53,932 bases of DNA, from positions 1-53,932 of the forward strand of contig JBHIAB010000002.1 of the NCBI GenBank assembly GCA_046758385.1. Reading direction: 5' to 3'. The position numbers were made by a program, and so were the translations under genes. This document shows, in pieces, positions 14,831 to 22,431 of this stretch. The notes beneath the pieces are model-generated. The model was given only the letters and a program-made list of their open reading frames with translations. It had not been told where the DNA came from and did not search any database. The stretch's first letter is position 1. Each line of letters begins with the position of its first letter. The stretch comes from Candidatus Methylomirabilia bacterium (GTDB lineage: Bacteria > Methylomirabilota > Methylomirabilia > Rokubacteriales > CSP1-6).

Positions 14831-15316
14831 CTACTTCTTGGAGAACTTTTCCTTGAGGGCCGTCTCGACGTTCTCGGGGACCATGCCGGCCACCGACGCG
14901 CCGTAGCTGGCGACCTCCTTGATGAGGCGGGATGAGATGTAGGTGTACCTCTCGTGGGGCATCATGAAGACGGTTTCCACGCTGTCGCGGAGCTTCCGGT
15001 TCATCAGCGCCATCTGAAACTCGTACTCGAAGTCGGAGACCGCCCGGACGCCCCTCACGATCACATTGGCCCCCTCTCGCGTCACCAGGTCCACGAGGAG
15101 AGCATCGAAGGAGGTAATGCGGAAGTTGGCCAGCCCGCCGGTGGCCTCATCGATCAGGTCCATGCGCTCCTTCACCGTGAAGAGGGGCTCCTTCGCGGGG
15201 TTGGCCACCACGGCCACAATCAGCTGATCGAAGATCTGCAAGCTGCGCGTGATCAGATCCAGGTGCCCGTTATGGACCGGATCGAACATGCCGGGATACA
15301 CTGCCCGTTTCCCCAC
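14831..15316 (-). CDS. coaD: phosphopantetheine adenylyltransferase
   Basis: YPGMFDPVHNGH, VRGVRAVSDFEYE and ISSRLIKEVA. GTG start with SD GAGGAGG. Confidence 0.97.
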   Translation of the reverse strand: MGKRAVYPGMFDPVHNGHLDLITRSLQIFDQLIVAVVANPAKEPLFTVKERMDLIDEATGGLANFRITSFDALLVDLVTREGANVIVRGVRAVSDFEYEFQMALMNRKLRDSVETVFMMPHERYTYISSRLIKEVASYGASVAGMVPENVETALKEKFSKK

Positions 15317-15366: not shown

Positions 15367-15921
15367 TTAGGCTCCGGCGCGGAAAAAAGTCAAGGTCGTT
15401 TCCCCGAACCGCCGACGTTTAAAGGTGCGCAAGCAGCCGACCCGATCGGGATGCGCGCGCTTGGTGAGGTGTTGGAGCGTGACGACGCCGCCGGGGATGA
15501 GGAGGACGCCGTCGGCGAGCCGGCCGAGTGCCTCCTCGGCCTCGGGGCTTTCATACGGCGGATCGAGGAAGATCAGCGTGAACGGTCTCCCCTCGCGCTT
15601 GAGGAGATCGAGGGTCGGGAGCACATCGCGGCCGAGGACGCGGCTCCGGCCCTCGAGGGCGAGATGCGTGAGGTTCTCGCGGAGCGCCTGGACGGCGAAG
15701 CGGCCGCGCTCGACAAAGACGCATGCGGCCGAGCCGCGAGAGAGGGCCTCAATGCCTACCCCCCCGGCCCCCGCGTAGAGATCGAGAAAGCGCGACCCGG
15801 GGAGCCACGGCGCGAGGGTGTCCAGGCACGCGATCCGCACCTGGTCGGCGGTGGGTCGCGTCCGTCTCCCCTGCGGGAGCCTGAGCCGCTGGCCTTTCAG
15901 CTCACCGGCAATGACCCGCAC
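15367..15921 (-). CDS. rsmD: 16S rRNA m2G966 methyltransferase
   Basis: GTG start at 15921 giving VRVIAGELKG, plus RPTAD, FLDLYAGAGGVGIEALSRG and DPPY. Confidence 0.95.
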   Translation of the reverse strand: MRVIAGELKGQRLRLPQGRRTRPTADQVRIACLDTLAPWLPGSRFLDLYAGAGGVGIEALSRGSAACVFVERGRFAVQALRENLTHLALEGRSRVLGRDVLPTLDLLKREGRPFTLIFLDPPYESPEAEEALGRLADGVLLIPGGVVTLQHLTKRAHPDRVGCLRTFKRRRFGETTLTFFRAGA

Positions 15922-15925
15922 GGGC

Positions 15926-18037
15926 CTACCCCGCACTGGCCAGGTCCAGCTTCCCCTGCCACCGGGAGAGCAGAGCCTCCCGAAGGACGCGATGCTCGGG
16001 GCGCACCAGAACGGGATCGGCCGCGACCAGTCCGAACGCCTCCTGGCGGGCTTCCTCGAGCACGCGACCATCCTGGAGCAGGTTTGCGACCCGAAATTCT
16101 GGAAGGCCCGACTGGCGCGTGCCGAAAAAGTCCCCCGGGCCGCGGAGCTCCAGGTCCACCTCGGCGATCCGAAAGCCGTCCTGGCTCTTCACCATCGCCT
16201 GAAGCCGCTGGCGCGCCTCTCGGCTCGCCGTCTCCGCGGCCAGCAGGATGCAGTAAGACTTCCACGGCCCGCGCCCGATGCGCCCGCGGAGCTGGTGAAG
16301 CTGGGCTAGGCCGAAGCGCTCGGCATGCTCCACCAACATGACCGTGGCGTTGGGGACATCGATTCCGACCTCGATCACCGTCGTCGAGACCAGGATCTTG
16401 ATCTCCCCCGCCTTGAAGGCGGCCATGATAGCCTCCTTTTCCTCGAAACGCATCCGGCCGTGAAGGAGGCCCACTCGGACCTCGGGAAAAACCTCCTGGG
16501 CCAGGCGCACGGCCATCTCGGAGGCGGCCTTGAGGTCCGAGGCCTCCGACTCCTCCACCAACGGGCACACCACATAGACCTGCCGCCCTTCCCGGATCTG
16601 CTCGCCGAGGAAGGTATAAATCCGGGCTCGACGGGACTCCTTCCTGACCCCCGTGACCACCGGCTGACGTCCCGGAGGCATCTGGTCGATCACCGAGAGG
16701 TCCAGGTCGCCGTACAGGGTGAGGGCAAGCGTGCGCGGGATGGGAGTCGCGGTCATTACCAGGAGATGGGGACGCACACCCTTGGCCCTCAGGCTGGCGC
16801 GCTGGATCACGCCGAAACGGTGCTGTTCATCCACCACGGCGAGGCCCAGTCGCTGGAACACCACCTCCTCCTGAATCAGTGCGTGGGTCCCGATGACCAC
16901 CGGGCTCACCCCGCGTGCCACCTCATCCAGCCGGGCTTCCCGTTCCTTTCCTTTCACGCCCGAGGTGAGAAGCGTGACGCGCAGGCCCAAGGGCGACAGA
17001 ATCTGCGACAGGGTCAGAAAGTGCTGCTCGGCCAAGATCTCTGTGGGCGCCATGAGGGCGGCCTGATGGCCAGCCTCGACGGCAGTCAGCATGGCCATGG
17101 CCGCCACGATGGTCTTTCCTGAGCCGACATCCCCTTGCAGGAGCCGGTTCATCGGCACCGACCGGGCCAAGTCCTCGCCGATCTCCTCCAACACCCGCTC
17201 TTGGGCCGTCGTCAGCGCGTACGGCAGGGACCTGCGCAAACGGTGCAGCAGCACCCCCGCCGATCGTATGGGGACCCCGCTCTCCTGCCCCTCCCGCTGC
17301 CGTCTGATCGCCAGTCCGAGCTGGAAGAGGAAGAAGTCCTCGAACACCAGGCGCCGGCGCGCCGCCGCGAGAGCGTCCCGACTTTCGGGGAAGTGAATGC
17401 TCCGGAGCGCCTGAGACAGCGGGAGGAGCATTCGCCGGGCGAGGACGACCTCGGGCAGGGTCTCACGCGCCTGGTCGGCGAAGCTTTCCACGACCCGCCA
17501 GAGAAGCGCACGGAGCTGGCGCTGCCCGAGCCCCTCGGTCAGGTGATAGACAGGGACCAGGCGGCCGGTGTGGAGGGTTTCCTCCTCGTCGCCGTCCAGG
17601 ATCTCGAAATCCGGGTGCTGCATCTGGAGCGGCCCGCCCTCGAAGCGGGTGACCTTGCCGTAGAGCACCAGGCGCTGCCCACGGCTCAGCACCTTCTGCA
17701 GATACGGCTGGTTGAACCAGACCGCGGTGAGGTAGCCCGACCCATCGCGGAGCAGCGCCTGGAGCGGCAGCCTGCGCTTCGCCCGCGGCGCCGGGCTGAC
17801 CCCGACGATGGTCCCCGAGCATGACTGAAACAGGCCGGGAGTGAGCGACCGGAACGGTGTCAGGCGACTCCGGTCCTCGTGACGAGCGGGGCAGAAGAAG
17901 AGGGCATCCTCAGCGGTAAGGAGTCTGAGGTGGGAAAGCAATTCCGACCGCTGGGGGCCGACCCCCTTCAGGTACCTCAGGGGTGTCTGAAGGCCCTGGG
18001 CCGTGTCGGAGGGAGGAGGGACGCCGTGAGACGTCAA
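15926..18037 (-). CDS. recG: ATP-dependent DNA helicase RecG
   Basis: LKGVGP, wedge domain WFNQPY, QGDVGSGKT, DEQH, MTATPIPRTL and QLHQLRGRIGRG. Confidence 0.97.
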   Translation of the reverse strand: MTSHGVPPPSDTAQGLQTPLRYLKGVGPQRSELLSHLRLLTAEDALFFCPARHEDRSRLTPFRSLTPGLFQSCSGTIVGVSPAPRAKRRLPLQALLRDGSGYLTAVWFNQPYLQKVLSRGQRLVLYGKVTRFEGGPLQMQHPDFEILDGDEEETLHTGRLVPVYHLTEGLGQRQLRALLWRVVESFADQARETLPEVVLARRMLLPLSQALRSIHFPESRDALAAARRRLVFEDFFLFQLGLAIRRQREGQESGVPIRSAGVLLHRLRRSLPYALTTAQERVLEEIGEDLARSVPMNRLLQGDVGSGKTIVAAMAMLTAVEAGHQAALMAPTEILAEQHFLTLSQILSPLGLRVTLLTSGVKGKEREARLDEVARGVSPVVIGTHALIQEEVVFQRLGLAVVDEQHRFGVIQRASLRAKGVRPHLLVMTATPIPRTLALTLYGDLDLSVIDQMPPGRQPVVTGVRKESRRARIYTFLGEQIREGRQVYVVCPLVEESEASDLKAASEMAVRLAQEVFPEVRVGLLHGRMRFEEKEAIMAAFKAGEIKILVSTTVIEVGIDVPNATVMLVEHAERFGLAQLHQLRGRIGRGPWKSYCILLAAETASREARQRLQAMVKSQDGFRIAEVDLELRGPGDFFGTRQSGLPEFRVANLLQDGRVLEEARQEAFGLVAADPVLVRPEHRVLREALLSRWQGKLDLASAG

Positions 18038-18118: not shown

Positions 18119-18310
18119 ATGGCGCTGCGCTGCGATATCTGCGGGAAGGGACCCGCCGTCGGCTACCGGATCAGCCACGCCCACAACGCGACCAAACGGC
18201 GCTGGCGGCCCAACCTGGTCTCGATCCGGGCGCTCATCGGCGGCGGCCCCCGGCGGGTTCGCATCTGCACCCGGTGCCTGAAGAGCGGGAAGGTGACCAA
18301 AGTGGTGTAG
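18119..18310 (+). CDS. rpmB: 50S ribosomal protein bL28 (zinc-ribbon, C+ form)
   Basis: MALRCDICGKGP...SHAHNATKRRWRPNL...ICTRCLKSG. SD GAGGAG. Confidence 0.97.
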   Translation: MALRCDICGKGPAVGYRISHAHNATKRRWRPNLVSIRALIGGGPRRVRICTRCLKSGKVTKVV

Positions 18311-18339
18311 GACGCCATGGGGAAGGACCGGTGAAATGA

Positions 18340-18401
18340 CGAGGGGGTGTCGCCACACCCCCTCGGGATGAGTGCCGGTGGGAGGCCGCCACCCCCCACC
18401 G
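18340..18401. terminator. two GC-rich stem-loops between convergent rpmB and the microprotein genes
   Basis: CGAGGGGGTGT-CGCC-ACACCCCCTCG is a perfect 11-bp stem (18340-18365). A second stem is CGGTGGG...CCCACCG (18376-18401). Neither has a U-tract. Confidence 0.5.
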
Positions 18402-18417
18402 ATGACTGCGGGCTAGC

Positions 18418-18465
18418 TTATCTCTTCTTCTTTTTCTTTGCCGCAGCCTTCTTCTTTTTAGCCAT
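18418..18465 (-). CDS. Lys-rich microprotein B, 15 aa: MAKKKKAAAKKKKKR
   Basis: Read by hand: ATG at 18465, TAA at 18420-18418, SD AAAGGAGGTGA shortly upstream. Paralogous to 18554-18607. Confidence 0.75.
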   Translation of the reverse strand: MAKKKKAAAKKKKKR

Positions 18466-18553
18466 GCCCAGTTCTCACCTCCTTTCCCCCATGAGGGGAT
18501 ACCCCCTCCTGCGCTCCCATGGAGTATCTCCCTCAGGTCGGCAACGAGGGATA

Positions 18554-18607
18554 CTACTTCTTCTTTTTCGCGGGCTTCTTGGCGGCCGCCTTCTTCTTCT
18601 TGGCCAT
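18554..18607 (-). CDS. Lys-rich microprotein A, 17 aa: MAKKKKAAAKKPAKKKK
   Basis: Read by hand: ATG at 18607, TAG at 18556-18554, SD AAAGGGGGTGA, and GC3-rich codons (AAG/GCC). Starts 24 nt after the upstream stop. Confidence 0.75.
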   Translation of the reverse strand: MAKKKKAAAKKPAKKKK

Positions 18608-18631
18608 GCGCGAGCTCACCCCCTTTCAGGC

Positions 18632-19678
18632 TCAGTAGCCTATCGCCTCACGCCGCAAGTACTCGGCCTGCTCCTTGCCACGCCGCTCGTAGTGGTACAG
18701 GTCGACGTACAGCTGCGGGAGGCACACCAGCGAGAGGCCCCCTTTCTCCAGCGGGGCATGGAACACCCCCTGATCGTACGGAGCCAGGAGGTGAACATTC
18801 CCTTCCCCTTCGCCGGGACGAAGACCAAGGGATCGCCCCAGGCTCTCCGACTCTCCCTCCAGGTAGCAGTGGATCTCAGGGACGCGAATGTTGGGAGCCA
18901 CCAGGGCGGCCCCCGAATGGAGGGTAAAGGCGTAGCGTCGTCCCTGGGCCTGAGCGGCTCGGGCAATCTCCACCATGAGCTTGCGCGTAATTCGCTCCGC
19001 TGAGAAGTAGGCGGCAAGAGCGTTCTGCCGATAGGTGTAGGCCTCGCGCCAGGCCTCCAGGAGTTCGGCAGGCTTGGCCAGGCGAATCCGCTGCTGCTCA
19101 CCACGATCCACCCAGGACAGTTCCTCGAGACGCTTGACGACATTGTGGGCGTGGCCCAGGCTCACCCCCGCGGCTTGCGCGAGCGCCTCGAGCCGCCAGG
19201 CCTGATAGGGGCTGACGAGCAGCGTCCGTACCACCCGGGTAGCCCGCGATGCGAAGAGCGACTTGAGCGGGCGGGTGGAAGGGTGAACGTTCGGCTTCCC
19301 CTCTTTCTCGATCAGGATGTTCTCGAGGGCCAGGTAGCAGTTTCCGGAGAGGTCCAGGTAGCCCAACCCGTTTCGGCGGAGAATGGCGGCGCTCTCAGGG
19401 CTGATGTACACAGAAACCGCGACCGGGTAGGCGCCGGGAAGCTCGCGATGGATTTCGTTCAGGCGGGTCACGGCCGCTCTGATCTGCCGAGGCTGTCCCA
19501 GCCCGGTCACTTCCAGCACGAGTGTGTGGTCGTACTCACCCATGCGAAATTTCACAACGACATCGGTGGCTTGGCTGCCAATTCGCTCGTCGGAGGTCTC
19601 TTCCCAGGCCCTTGCCTTCGGAAAGAGCTCCCGAAGCCGTTGGACCACCAGCCGCCCGATTTGCTTGTCATTAAGCAT
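18632..19678 (-). CDS. AbiEi_2-like (DUF2186-type) type IV antitoxin / transcriptional regulator
   Basis: ATG at 19678. GLGYLDLSGNCYL, a winged HTH (RLEALAQAAGVSLGHAHNVVKRL), and C-terminal RYAFTLHSGA...PQLYVDL...RGKEQAEYL, characteristic of this family. Confidence 0.8.
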   Translation of the reverse strand: MLNDKQIGRLVVQRLRELFPKARAWEETSDERIGSQATDVVVKFRMGEYDHTLVLEVTGLGQPRQIRAAVTRLNEIHRELPGAYPVAVSVYISPESAAILRRNGLGYLDLSGNCYLALENILIEKEGKPNVHPSTRPLKSLFASRATRVVRTLLVSPYQAWRLEALAQAAGVSLGHAHNVVKRLEELSWVDRGEQQRIRLAKPAELLEAWREAYTYRQNALAAYFSAERITRKLMVEIARAAQAQGRRYAFTLHSGAALVAPNIRVPEIHCYLEGESESLGRSLGLRPGEGEGNVHLLAPYDQGVFHAPLEKGGLSLVCLPQLYVDLYHYERRGKEQAEYLRREAIGY

Positions 19679-19696: not shown

Positions 19697-19744
19697 GTTT
19701 TCAGCATTTGCTGAAAACATAGGAAAGGTTGAAACCCTTGTCAA
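19697..19744 (-). promoter_or_regulatory. consensus sigma70 promoter overlapped by an operator palindrome
   Basis: TTGACA (19744-19739), 17 nt, TATGTT (19721-19716). The perfect inverted repeat GTTTTCAGCA-TT-TGCTGAAAAC at 19697-19718 covers the -10 and the start site. Confidence 0.85.
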
Positions 19745-19873: not shown

Positions 19874-20251
19874 CTACTTCCCTTCTGGCTGCTCGAGCTC
19901 TTCCATCCGCTCGTCGTCGAGGCCAAAGTAATGGCCGACCTCGTGGATGACCACGTCACGAATCAGCTCGCTCATCTCATCCTCGTCGGCAGAGTCTTGC
20001 TCGATCGGGCCCTGGTAGATCGTAACGGTGTCCGGAAGCACGTTCCCGTAAAACGAGTCGCGGTGGGGAAAGTCCACACCCCGGTAGAGGCCGTAGAGGG
20101 TGTCGGGCGGGGCGATCTCCATTTCCTCAAGCGTCGCGGCGTCGGGCCAATCTTCCACCACCACAGCGATGTTCCGGAGCCGCCGCTTGAAACGACGCGG
20201 AAGGGACTTGAGGGCAGAGGAGACGAGAGACTGGAACTGCTCCCGGGTCAC
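19874..20251 (-). CDS. zinicin-like metallopeptidase family protein
   Basis: LYGLYRG, PDTVTIYQGPI and HEVGHYFG (HExxH). Confidence 0.9.
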   Translation of the reverse strand: MTREQFQSLVSSALKSLPRRFKRRLRNIAVVVEDWPDAATLEEMEIAPPDTLYGLYRGVDFPHRDSFYGNVLPDTVTIYQGPIEQDSADEDEMSELIRDVVIHEVGHYFGLDDERMEELEQPEGK

Positions 20252-20274: not shown

Positions 20275-22431
20275 TTAAAGCCCCTGCACGCGCTCCACGT
20301 TGATGACGTCCTCCACGTGGTGGATGGCCGTCATGATCTCCCTGAGCTGCGCGAGGTCCTCTACCTCCACCACGAAGCGATTCATCCCCTTGCGGTCCTC
20401 GGTAACGGTAATCTCGGCCCTTGTGATGTTTCCACGCCGCGAGGAGATGGCGCTGCTGATCTCAGCCAAGAGCCCAGGACGATCGCGCCCGATGTAGACA
20501 TCGATCTTCACCGGGCGAACCTTGGGCTCGGCCACCTCCCACTCCACCCCCACCAGCCGGTCCCGGTCCAGAACGCCCTGAGCCACGGTGGAACACTCCC
20601 TGGTGTGAACGGTGAGGCCGCGGCCGCGGGTGATGAACCCGACGATGCCATCCCCCGGAACCGGCGAGCAACACTTGGCGAAGCGAATCAAGAGGTCTTC
20701 CACGCCTCGAATCTTGACGCCCCCCTCGCTCCTCGCTGCGGGCTTGGCGGCCTTCTGAGGCCTGGCTGCTGGTACCCGCTCGGCCTCCGGCGCCTCGCTG
20801 GAGACCAACTTTCTCATCACCTGGTGGACCGAGGTCCTCCCGTAGCCGATGGAGGCCAGCAACTCGTCGACGGTTGGGAAGCCAAGATCAGCTAACGTCC
20901 TCCCCGCCTCGTCTGAGGCCAGGAGGTTGGACGGCGAGAGGCGGTGCTTCCTGGCCTCCCGCTCGAAGATCTCGCGCCCCAGGCTGAGTGAGCGGACGCG
21001 CTCCTCGCCCTTGAGCCACTGCTTGATCTTGGAGCGGGCGCGCGTGGACTTGACCACCTTGAGCCAGTCACGGCTCGGATGCTGTGTGGGAGAGGTCAGA
21101 ATCTCCACGATGTCGCCCTGCCGGAGGGTGTAGCGAAGGGGGACCAGCTTGCCGTTGACCTTGGCCCCCATGCAATGATGCCCCACCTCGGTGTGGACCG
21201 CGTAGGCGAAATCGATGGAGCACGACGCTTCGGGGAGCGCTTTCACGTCTCCCTTGGGCGTGAAGACATAGACCTCGTCCGGGAAGAGATCGAACCGGAC
21301 CGAGTCCATGAACTCCCGCGGGTCCTTCATGTCTTGCTGCCACTCCATGAGCTGGCGCAGCCAGAGGAACCCTCGGTCGAATCTGTCCTTCTCGCTCTTC
21401 CCTTCCTTGTAAAGCCAGTGGGCCGCGATCCCCTCTTCGGCCACCCGGTGCATCTCCCGCGTGCGGATCTGGATTTCTACCGGATCGCCCGTCGGCCCGA
21501 TCACCGTGGTGTGCAACGACTGATACATGTTGACCTTCGGCATGGCGATGAAGTCTTTGAAGCGCCCCGGCACCGGCTTCCAGAGCGAGTGGATCACACC
21601 CAGCGCCCCGTAGCAGTCGCGCACGGAGTTGACGATCACCCGGACCGCGGTGAGATCGTAGATCTCGTCGAACTCTCGCCCCTGGTCGTGCATCTTTTTC
21701 CAGATGGAGTAAAAGTGCTTGGGCCGCCCCTGGATCTGCGCCTCGATTCCCACCTCCCGAAGCTTCTTCCCCACGATGGCGATGACCCGGTTGATCTCCA
21801 CCTCCCGCTCCAGGCGCCGCTTGGCGACCTGTCGCTGGAGCTCCTCGTAATCCACCGGATGGAGGGCCTTCAGGGCCAAGTCTTCCAGCTCCGTCTTGAC
21901 CTGGGCCATGCCGAGGCGATGAGCAAGCGGGGCATAGATCTGGAGGGTCTCCTCGGCCACCTTCCGTGTCCTGGGCGGGGCCAAGTAGTGGAGGGTGCGC
22001 ATGTTGTGCAGACGGTCGGCCAGCTTGACCATCAGGACCCGGATATCCTGGGCCATGGCCACGAGCATCTTGCGGAAATTCTCGGCCTGCCGCTCCTCCC
22101 GGGAAGAGAAGGCAAGCTTGCCGATCTTGGTTACCCCATCGACGAGCTCGGCGATCTCGGAGCCAAACTCCCGGGTCAGGTCGTCCTTGGTCGCTTTGCT
22201 ATCCTCGATGACGTCGTGGAGGAGACCGGCAGTCACCGTCATGACGTCCATCCTGAATCTGACCAGCAGGTCGGCGACCTCCACGGGATGGGAGAGGTAC
22301 GGCTCGCCAGAGGCACGCTGCTGTCCCTGGTGAGAACGCTCGGAAAAGCGGAAGGCACGCTGGAGTATGTCCAGATCGGCGCCCGGCTGGTACTTCGGAA
22401 TCTCTTCGAGTAGAGTCTGAAGCTCTGTCAT
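20275..22431 (-). CDS. rel: long bifunctional (p)ppGpp synthetase/hydrolase (Rel/SpoT)
   Basis: Intact HD motif HDVIED, KLADRLHN, synthetase GRPKH/YQSLHT/EIQIRT, then TGS, CC zinc-finger and ACT domains. Confidence 0.97.
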   Translation of the reverse strand: MTELQTLLEEIPKYQPGADLDILQRAFRFSERSHQGQQRASGEPYLSHPVEVADLLVRFRMDVMTVTAGLLHDVIEDSKATKDDLTREFGSEIAELVDGVTKIGKLAFSSREERQAENFRKMLVAMAQDIRVLMVKLADRLHNMRTLHYLAPPRTRKVAEETLQIYAPLAHRLGMAQVKTELEDLALKALHPVDYEELQRQVAKRRLEREVEINRVIAIVGKKLREVGIEAQIQGRPKHFYSIWKKMHDQGREFDEIYDLTAVRVIVNSVRDCYGALGVIHSLWKPVPGRFKDFIAMPKVNMYQSLHTTVIGPTGDPVEIQIRTREMHRVAEEGIAAHWLYKEGKSEKDRFDRGFLWLRQLMEWQQDMKDPREFMDSVRFDLFPDEVYVFTPKGDVKALPEASCSIDFAYAVHTEVGHHCMGAKVNGKLVPLRYTLRQGDIVEILTSPTQHPSRDWLKVVKSTRARSKIKQWLKGEERVRSLSLGREIFEREARKHRLSPSNLLASDEAGRTLADLGFPTVDELLASIGYGRTSVHQVMRKLVSSEAPEAERVPAARPQKAAKPAARSEGGVKIRGVEDLLIRFAKCCSPVPGDGIVGFITRGRGLTVHTRECSTVAQGVLDRDRLVGVEWEVAEPKVRPVKIDVYIGRDRPGLLAEISSAISSRRGNITRAEITVTEDRKGMNRFVVEVEDLAQLREIMTAIHHVEDVINVERVQGL

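Follow-up and report, generated by a model that had tools for sequence, protein, structure and literature searches.

Two lysine-rich micro-ORFs between an AbiEi-like gene and rpmB

The stretch of DNA analysed here, 53,932 nucleotides (nt) of contig JBHIAB010000002.1 from a Candidatus Methylomirabilia bacterium (the window; about 65% G+C), contains two very short, lysine-rich open reading frames (ORFs), ORF1 and ORF2. Both lie on the minus strand, to which ORF coordinates refer unless stated, between a gene for an AbiEi-like regulator and the convergent ribosomal protein gene rpmB (Table 1). A preliminary description of this sequence had reported two minus-strand ORFs with strong Shine-Dalgarno (SD) sequences, and the sequence and its ORF list contain both as claimed. 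We found that the first 11 nt of the ORF2 SD (AAAGGAGGTGA) form a perfect complement of the canonical 16S 3' end. No perfect complement of the anti-SD elsewhere in the 54-kb window is as long; the first-ATG candidates of the window's long ORFs reached 7 nt at most.

Over their first 11 codons, ORF1 and ORF2 differ at six third positions and at no non-synonymous site, in line with the earlier claim that only synonymous differences occur across the shared MAKKKKAAAKK. A degenerate DNA pattern for this peptide matched the window at two sites only, ORF1 and ORF2, and gave no match in 100 dinucleotide-preserving shuffles with three mismatches permitted. Similarly, the only Lys-rich sequences among the 1449 window ORFs of 8-40 amino acids (aa) were ORF1, ORF2 and an N-terminally extended form of ORF1. 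The G+C content drops locally to 55% at the two ORFs. A Met-cleaved form of the peptides is predicted, for example AKKKKAAKKKKK. The spacer between the ORFs folds into local hairpins, one stem of which is retained despite sequence changes in a syntenic relative (L002, see below); sequence conservation of the spacer across clades was not found.

The preliminary description further stated that gene callers had missed both ORFs and that the pair converges on rpmB. Both statements held. On a Logan contig with an identical region, the gene caller had placed only a 39-aa antisense ORF here, and in three deeply branching loci (L105-L107, see below) no gene was called between the AbiEi-like gene and rpmB. 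The window shows this convergence, and so do 68 of 68 loci, with rpmB lying 262-387 nt from the AbiEi-like stop codon. The called 39-aa ORF, MEYLPQVGNEGYYFFFFAGFLAAAFFFLAMRELTPFQAQ, is Phe-rich and antisense to ORF1 (window 18519-18638, plus strand; L001 2179-2298). We rejected antisense coding: relative to ORF2, the frame of the antisense ORF is at offset 0 in 17 loci, 1 in 27, 2 in 12 and none in 6. As its frame shifts between loci in this way, we attribute the 39-aa ORF to a mis-call due to the complement of the AAG run.

Conservation and coding signature of the micro-ORFs

A strict scan for the peptide pattern, covering one genome per GTDB species, yielded L002, a syntenic Candidatus Methylomirabilia metagenome-assembled genome (MAG). 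Between the window and L002, ORF1 has a single synonymous change and two that alter the peptide (Pro-Ala to Thr-Thr); its SD is unchanged, whereas the spacer from SD to ATG varies. ORF2 shows synonymous changes only, among them AGA to CGG (Arg in both cases), and two indels of whole codons. To avoid peptide-based ascertainment, we also collected 80 metagenomic loci by way of the AbiEi-like neighbour protein (66-74% identical to that of the window). Presence was counted in the 77 loci with at least 260 nt of downstream sequence, and codon statistics were drawn from 62 distinct loci.

ORF2 was intact in all 77 loci, as well as in L002 and L105-L107, and is 11-15 aa long. An orthologue of ORF1, of 13-24 aa (23-24 aa in most), was present in 73 of the 77; it is degenerate in L016 (MAKKRGRGRPDV...) and absent from L034, L059 and L062. 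Because these four loci keep ORF2 together with the hairpin (H1) and the terminator that follow it, ORF2 appears to be the more indispensable of the two. In L105-L107, a deeper clade whose neighbour protein is 54% identical to that of the window, we found both ORFs with GGAGGTGA SDs; the peptides are MAKKKAAKKKK and MAKKKAAKKKK(K), and in L106 both ORFs start with GTG.

The start codon, the stop codon and the GGAGGTGA SD are preserved across loci. Each ORF consists of ATG (GTG in L106), 10-23 sense codons and a stop, and begins 9-15 nt past GGRGG in every locus. All 59 distinct loci that bear ORF1 have the core GGRGGTGR, and the SD of ORF2 reads AAAGGAGGTGA in 42 of the 62 distinct loci and AAAGGGGGTGA in 14. 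Third-position entropy over the final 80 codons of the AbiEi-like gene is about 1-1.7 bits, with synonymous sites near saturation, and the loci are thus well diverged. Together, these alignments show purifying selection throughout the phylum Methylomirabilota (Rokubacteria) on the ORFs, on their SDs and on their start and stop codons; the micro-ORF element is a trait of the whole phylum. Peptide, SD and synteny with rpmB, for which the preliminary description had looked to conservation in relatives, were all kept.

Among the 62 distinct loci, ORF1 encodes 28 different peptides (65% Lys+Arg; commonest MPKRKKAVKKGGKKKATKKGKRK) and ORF2 encodes 11 (72% Lys+Arg), one of which, MAKKKKAAKKKKK, occurs in 41 loci. 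The residues tally as K 297, A 96, R 66, G 45, T 21, V 15, S 11, P 9 and H 2 for ORF1, and as K 91, A 30, T 6, R 3 and M 1 for ORF2. None of 1029 codons specifies Asp, Glu, Asn, Gln, Phe, Tyr, Trp, Leu, Ile or Cys; Met occurs as the start codon only, save for one internal Met in a single ORF2 variant, and Val is rare. Lys is swapped with Arg, for which 87 codons were counted, 78% of them CGN. Loci with identical peptides differ at synonymous sites only, with up to five DNAs per peptide; the 41 loci with MAKKKKAAKKKKK encode it by five DNAs that differ at third positions only, and across loci the purine run is interrupted by accepted Thr, Ala, Pro, Val and Gly codons. Since GAR (Glu) codons were never seen, though they would preserve the purines, and pyrimidine-bearing codons are tolerated, the constraint appears to act on the peptide rather than on a purine tract. 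These data indicate that what selection maintains is a positively charged composition that lacks acidic, amide and aromatic residues as well as Leu, Ile and Cys, and that ORF1 and ORF2 are probably translated genes selected at the peptide level. The missing Glu codons, the CGN Arg codons and the synonymous-only DNA variants agree with the preliminary description, which had favoured selection on the peptide over drift of an AAG repeat.

The same codons bear on an explanation in which the ORFs are incidental and the AAG-rich tracts and SD-like motifs act as RNA or DNA, for example as a sponge for ribosomes or a protein or as part of the rpmB 3' region. The high nucleotide conservation of ORF2 and H1 would fit such an element, as would the two near-exact mimics of the 16S 3' end borne by the rpmB strand. 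However, every locus has an intact start and stop, those with ATG-to-GTG switches included, and the sense codons exclude GAR while accepting Thr, Ala, Pro, Val and CGN Arg. Furthermore, G.U pairs put H1 on the ORF strand (see below), and Rfam gave nothing at gathering thresholds over the whole window and noise only when 18250-18700 was scanned by E-value. A search for tRNA and tmRNA genes was negative. We regard a purely non-coding element as very improbable.

The preliminary description had also read the pair as a duplication followed by selection on the peptide. The second part is supported by some 80 diverged loci. A recent duplication, in contrast, is just one reading of the likeness between the ORFs: ORF1 resembles ORF2 in the window clade (shared MAKKKKAAAKK) and in the deep clade (MAKKKAAKKKK twice), but in the main clade ORF1 (MPKRKKAVKKGGKKKATKKGKRK) and ORF2 (MAKKKKAAKKKKK) are quite dissimilar. 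The likeness within clades is compatible with repeated duplication or gene conversion.

The AbiEi-type operon and its toxin slot

The C-terminal half of the regulator encoded upstream of ORF1 matches Pfam PF09952 (AbiEi_2) with 27 bits against a cut-off of 21. We found more than 1300 homologues, called AbiEi in NCBI and JGI naming and assigned to Methylomirabilota or Rokubacteria in the source records; the majority of the best 120 have 348 aa. An exhaustive search returned 3727 cluster representatives. An AlphaFold2 model, with a predicted local distance difference test score (pLDDT) of 73, gave weak Foldseek matches (E ~1e-3), of the N-terminal part to the PD-(D/E)xK nucleases NucS/EndoMS and PaqCI and of the middle part to MarR/IclR winged helices. 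The PADLOC models for AbiE did not match the regulator.

Using as query P0130, which is 36% identical to the window protein, we assessed five distant contexts within L096-L104, from Dehalococcoidia, other Chloroflexota, Actinomycetota and Candidatus Hakubella. In four of the five, a gene of 283-295 aa starts 7-13 nt after the AbiEi-like homologue, and these partner genes are homologous to one another; the partner in L104 matches AbiEii (PF08843) with 28.7 bits (cut-off 22.5), and that in L102 with 18.6 bits, below the cut-off. The fifth context, L100, has no co-oriented gene after the homologue and contains a TIR gene; resolvase or relaxase genes occur in two of the contexts. None of the five has Lys-rich micro-ORFs. 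The AbiEii-paired homologues are of similar length to the regulator (354-362 aa) and thus may share its domain architecture. In the window and the approximately 80 loci of Methylomirabilota, micro-ORFs alone stand between the AbiEi-like gene and rpmB, with no AbiEii downstream. These findings indicate that the micro-ORFs occupy the slot of an AbiEii-type toxin gene, as filled in four of five related operons. They are not a remnant of the AbiEii N-terminus, as the N-termini of the AbiEii-like proteins are not Lys-rich.

The features that surround the micro-ORFs are consistent with a single operon. When 60 distinct upstream regions are aligned, the predicted promoter is conserved in its cTTGACA box and its -10 region. 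In every locus 17 nt separate cTTGACA from a -10 box like TATGTT, and the TTTCAGC...GCTGAAA of the adjoining palindrome is invariant or almost so across loci. This palindrome is probably an autoregulatory operator of the AbiEi-like protein. Two of the distant operons have a palindrome after the -10 box; in the distant AbiEi/AbiEii operons the palindrome in this position is a different one (TTTTCCCGTACGGGAAAA in L102 and L104). A promoter embedded in the last 240 nt of the regulator gene was rejected, as no run of conserved synonymous sites was seen there. The AbiEi-like gene is without a GGAGG-type SD. In sum, ORF1 and ORF2 appear to be the final cistrons of an AbiEi-type operon, followed by a conserved hairpin and a terminator, and we infer that the operon is co-transcribed and autorepressed.

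With AbiEi-AbiEii operons, the operon of Methylomirabilota shares a PF09952 first gene, the layout of promoter and palindrome, and a close second cistron. It differs in having two oligolysine micro-ORFs in place of AbiEii, and in being core-genome and syntenic rather than mobile. The module could thus be toxin-antitoxin-like, with polycationic peptides as growth-inhibiting replacements of AbiEii that the AbiEi-like protein curbs. Polycations can harm cells, and the position behind an AbiEi-family gene with a promoter-proximal palindrome is that of AbiEii in the operons of other phyla. The locus is, however, syntenic and part of the core genome across the phylum, unlike mobile or patchy toxin-antitoxin or defence loci, and it holds two tandem copies rather than one. 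The translation signals of the putative toxins are far stronger than those of the putative antitoxin, opposite to the usual logic, and the regulator lacks a PADLOC match for AbiE. The micro-ORF peptides are also unlike type I toxin peptides: without Leu, Ile, Phe, Trp, Tyr and Cys, they would not form a hydrophobic membrane-spanning peptide. We give a toxin function a slim chance.

Table 1. Features of the micro-ORF locus and its surroundings in the window.
Feature	Position	Strand	Description	Basis
ORF1	ATG 18607 to TAG 18554	minus	peptide MAKKKKAAAKKPAKKKK, 17 aa, net charge about +10	sequence and ORF list
ORF2	ATG 18465 to TAA 18418	minus	peptide MAKKKKAAAKKKKKR, 15 aa, net charge about +10	sequence and ORF list
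SD of ORF1	18626-18615	minus	AAAGGGGGTGAG, 7 nt before ATG, 5 nt past the AbiEi-like stop codon	
SD of ORF2	18485-18474	minus	AAAGGAGGTGAG, 8 nt before ATG	
Inter-ORF spacer	18491-18553	minus	local hairpins GTATCCCTC...GAGGGAGATAC and GAGGGGGTATCCCCTC	RNA folding
AbiEi-like regulator	18632-19678	minus	348 aa, start MLNDKQ; nuclease-like N-terminal domain, winged helix, C-terminal AbiEi_2	
Sigma-70-type promoter	19744-19716	minus	-35 TTGACA (19744-19739), 17-nt spacer, -10 TATGTT (19721-19716), upstream T-run	promoter scan
Palindrome, putative operator	19698-19717	minus	TTTTCAGC-AAAT-GCTGAAAA; overlaps -10 box and likely transcription start	
Hairpin H1	18401-18375	minus	CGGTGGGGGG-TGGCGG-CCTCCCACCG(G), 10-bp stem	
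Intrinsic terminator T	18364-18333	minus	GAGGGGGTGT-GGCG-ACACCCCCTC and GTCATTTC tail	sequence, folding
rpmB	18119-18310	plus	ribosomal protein L28, 63 aa; convergent	Pfam PF00830, E = 9e-21
recG	15926-18037		beyond rpmB in minus-strand order	
Zincin_1 protein gene	19874-20251		upstream of the AbiEi-like gene in minus-strand order	
relA/spoT	20275-22431		upstream in minus-strand order	

The hairpin H1 begins 10-17 nt past the ORF2 stop codon in 75 of 77 loci and 27 nt past it in the other two. It is almost invariant within the main clade, and in its alignment 98% of cells are paired, with slight covariation. H1 of L002 has a different loop, and the deep clade has a hairpin of other sequence, 9 nt past the ORF2 stop. 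All wobble pairs of H1 are G.U on the ORF strand and would be C.A mismatches on the other, which places H1 on the ORF strand; for this reason a DNA operator and a structure of the rpmB strand were rejected. A dispersed repeat was likewise rejected, H1 being single-copy in the window and in each locus. A conserved GACTCAT follows H1, and the 5' arm and loop of H1 resemble those of the downstream terminator in the main clade (CGGYGGGGGGTGGCG).

Orthologues of terminator T consist of a GC-rich hairpin and a T-run, and their sequence varies between clades; a simple terminator scan missed T because its T-run in the window is weak. For 20 diverse sequences, RNAalifold returned two independent consensus hairpins only, H1 and T, and no alternative antiterminator pairing. 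Recoding or frameshifting on the A-rich run by way of H1, assessed by eye, was rejected: the stretch from H1 to the terminator has indels whose lengths break the triplet frame, and no conserved longer frame was seen.

This arrangement raises the question of whether it is the act of translating the polybasic mini-ORFs that matters, in cis, rather than the released peptide. Loading or pausing of ribosomes on the Lys/Arg run might control mRNA stability or 3' processing, or antisense read-through into rpmB and recG, or might serve to sense lysyl-tRNA or free ribosomes. The near-fixed distance from ORF2 to H1, with a terminator behind it, speaks for such a role, as do the maximal SDs, the nucleotide conservation of ORF2 beyond what the peptide needs, and the presence of recG on the same strand past the 192-nt rpmB in 47 of 53 loci. 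Runs of a single amino acid are, moreover, a hallmark of attenuator leader peptides: like hisL, pheL, thrL and trpL, the micro-ORFs have 11-24 codons, one dominant residue, a strong SD and hairpins that include a terminator. Unlike these leaders, however, they lie at the 3' end of an operon. No co-oriented gene lies between the terminator and the convergent rpmB in any of 68 loci, and no conserved antiterminator pairing was seen by RNAalifold. Lys is often replaced by Arg through CGN codons, which speaks somewhat against the sensing of Lys-tRNA; Lys runs are present, with 66 Arg, mostly CGN, among the 363 basic residues of ORF1. Between clades the sequence of the terminator changes without apparent constraint, as is typical of constitutive terminators, and a ribosome on the stop codon would scarcely reach H1, 10-17 nt away. 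Owing to the Arg exchange, the missing downstream gene and the missing alternative pairing, we rejected a Lys-sensing attenuator as the main model, and we consider a cis-acting role of translation in general unlikely.

The gene neighbourhood is conserved beyond the operon itself. The Zincin_1 gene lies upstream in 69 of 69 loci, and recG lies downstream on the same strand as noted above. In L107 (1501-3041), the synteny with relA, Zincin_1 and recG is broken, and the AbiEi-like gene, the micro-ORFs and the convergent rpmB stand together; this arrangement suggests that the link with rpmB is more than inherited gene order. Next to recG in minus-strand order, 15367-16071 and 14831-15316 are, judging by eye, probably rsmD and coaD.

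Possible functions of the encoded oligolysines

Searches with the peptides gave no family. Ten peptide variants matched nothing in Pfam and NCBIfam at E up to 10, and a phmmer search of the commonest ORF1 peptide against the PDB, also at E up to 10, gave no match; low complexity limits the sensitivity of both. Full-text literature searches returned no description of such genes.

One class of known proteins comes close in size and charge. Unannotated, tiny and very basic ribosomal proteins, such as bS22, bL37 and bL38, have repeatedly been revealed by cryo-electron microscopy (PMC10618245). Like the micro-ORFs, bS22, eL41, mS38, bL37 and bTHX are very short, have at least about 60% Lys+Arg, often escape annotation and are conserved within lineages (PMC10618245). 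ORF1, perhaps with ORF2, might thus encode dedicated ribosomal micro-proteins that fill pockets in the rRNA, as bS22, eL41, bL37 and bTHX do. The size and charge of ORF1 match those of eL41, one helix of 24 residues, and of bS22, which is 61% Lys+Arg; at 23-24 aa in most loci ORF1 has the size of eL41 and bL37; and bS22, unannotated in Borrelia, is predicted to occur in further species (PMC10618245). The ORFs belong to the core genome throughout the phylum, the strongest SD in the window is theirs, and their adjacency to rpmB survives where other synteny breaks. Against the about 24-33 aa of ribosomal micro-proteins, ORF1 fits with 13-24 aa, and ORF2, with 11-15 aa, is shorter than known members. 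On the other hand, the micro-ORF peptides lack hydrophobic or aromatic anchor residues. Their variable length, and the loss of ORF1 in four loci, would be unusual for structural ribosomal proteins, and no Pfam, NCBIfam or PDB-chain match was found at E up to 10. The ORFs also stand in an apparently autorepressed AbiEi-type operon, on the strand opposite rpmB. We know of no ribosomal protein as short as the 11-15 aa of ORF2. A dedicated ribosomal role strikes us as quite unlikely.

In composition, the micro-ORFs also resemble bacterial Lys/Ala/Pro-rich proteins like histone H1, namely Hc1/Hc2, AlgP and the long Lys/Ala-rich proteins of L004, L005 and L009; MAKKKKAAAKK is even the N-terminus of the Lys/Ala-rich proteins of 81, 96 and 156 aa in other phyla. 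Compared with such histone-H1-like proteins, the micro-ORF peptides, at 11-24 aa, are several-fold shorter and have no repeat array. Each of the systems likened here has a defining feature that the locus lacks, and by this comparison the locus appears to consist of conserved micro-protein genes in a remodelled AbiE-type operon.

The most likely ancestor of the operon is an AbiEi-AbiEii module of type IV, in which the nucleotidyltransferase toxin gene would have been replaced by the micro-ORFs and which would have become fixed in the core genome beside rpmB. The products of ORF1 and ORF2 would be oligolysines, 11-24 residues long and carrying a net charge of roughly +8 to +15. As the SD of the regulator is weak and those of the micro-ORFs, on the same mRNA, are maximal, the peptides should far outnumber the regulator; we infer efficient translation, well above that of the regulator, and binding to polyanions. 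The peptides would act in trans, as small polycations, and candidate partners are rRNA or ribosomes, other RNA (possibly H1 on their own mRNA) and DNA. The preliminary description had likewise considered nucleoid condensation, binding of polyphosphate or RNA, and ribosome association as roles that the peptides may have. Taken in full, this model of trans-acting oligolysines is in our view about evenly balanced between right and wrong.

Several points weigh against it, or against the coding evidence on which it builds. The support is entirely comparative, and the metagenomic loci are not phylogenetically independent, every one having been picked for its AbiEi-like gene. Since (AAG)n slips in units of 3 nt, in-frame indels are weak evidence, and AAG codon bias accounts for some of the third-position conservation. 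The DNA of ORF2 is more conserved than its peptide needs (five DNAs in 41 loci), and this excess, together with the strongly conserved H1, hints at an RNA-level or cis role. Peptides of 11-13 residues without a hydrophobic residue may be degraded quickly. In addition, an autorepressed operon is an unobvious route to an abundant product.

If they are genes, ORF1 and ORF2 would rank among the shortest protein-coding genes conserved phylum-wide in bacteria, and standard gene callers miss them; they offer a clean comparative set on which to test the annotation of ORFs below 25 codons where sequence complexity is low. The operon would represent a new fate for a toxin-antitoxin or abortive-infection module, the regulator being retained in the core genome and the enzyme toxin exchanged for micro-ORFs. 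Binding to ribosomes or RNA, if true, would add lineage-specific components of translation, and a role as bulk polycation, if true, would make them a novel type of counter-ion in the cell.

Outside the phylum, the strict pattern scan yielded tiny MAKKKKAAAKK ORFs that stand alone and are 14-22 aa long. Most have an SD, and a hairpin resembling a terminator accompanies two of them. The scan in addition caught ordinary enzymes and long Lys/Ala-rich proteins that begin with MAKKKKAAAKK. We treat the tiny ORFs outside the phylum as a lead rather than as evidence, the MAG pairs being too alike for a test of conservation. It is a doubtful extension of the data that encoded oligolysines of 11-24 residues form an unrecognised class of polycations, acting as protamine- or polyamine-like counter-ions or as ribosome- or RNA-bound micro-subunits, which in Methylomirabilota came under the control of an AbiEi-type regulator in place of a toxin and which includes mini-genes of Phycisphaerae, Verrucomicrobiota/Planctomycetota, Asgard and DPANN.

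Two Phycisphaerae MAGs (L006 1689-1721 and L013 2099-2131, both on the minus strand) carry a 22-aa ORF, MAKKKKAAAKKAAKKTAKKKSK, with an SD and a clear intrinsic terminator. The gene divergent from it presumably has a dapB-like N-terminus (dihydrodipicolinate reductase, lysine biosynthesis), judged by eye only. ORFs of 18 aa occur in a Chthoniobacterales MAG (L008 304-336, minus strand) and a Planctomycetaceae MAG (L010 214-246, plus strand), which have near-identical flanks under different taxonomic labels. A 20-aa ORF lies in a Hodarchaeota MAG (L007 3419-3451, minus strand) and a 14-aa ORF in a Woesearchaeota MAG (L011 5673-5705, plus strand).

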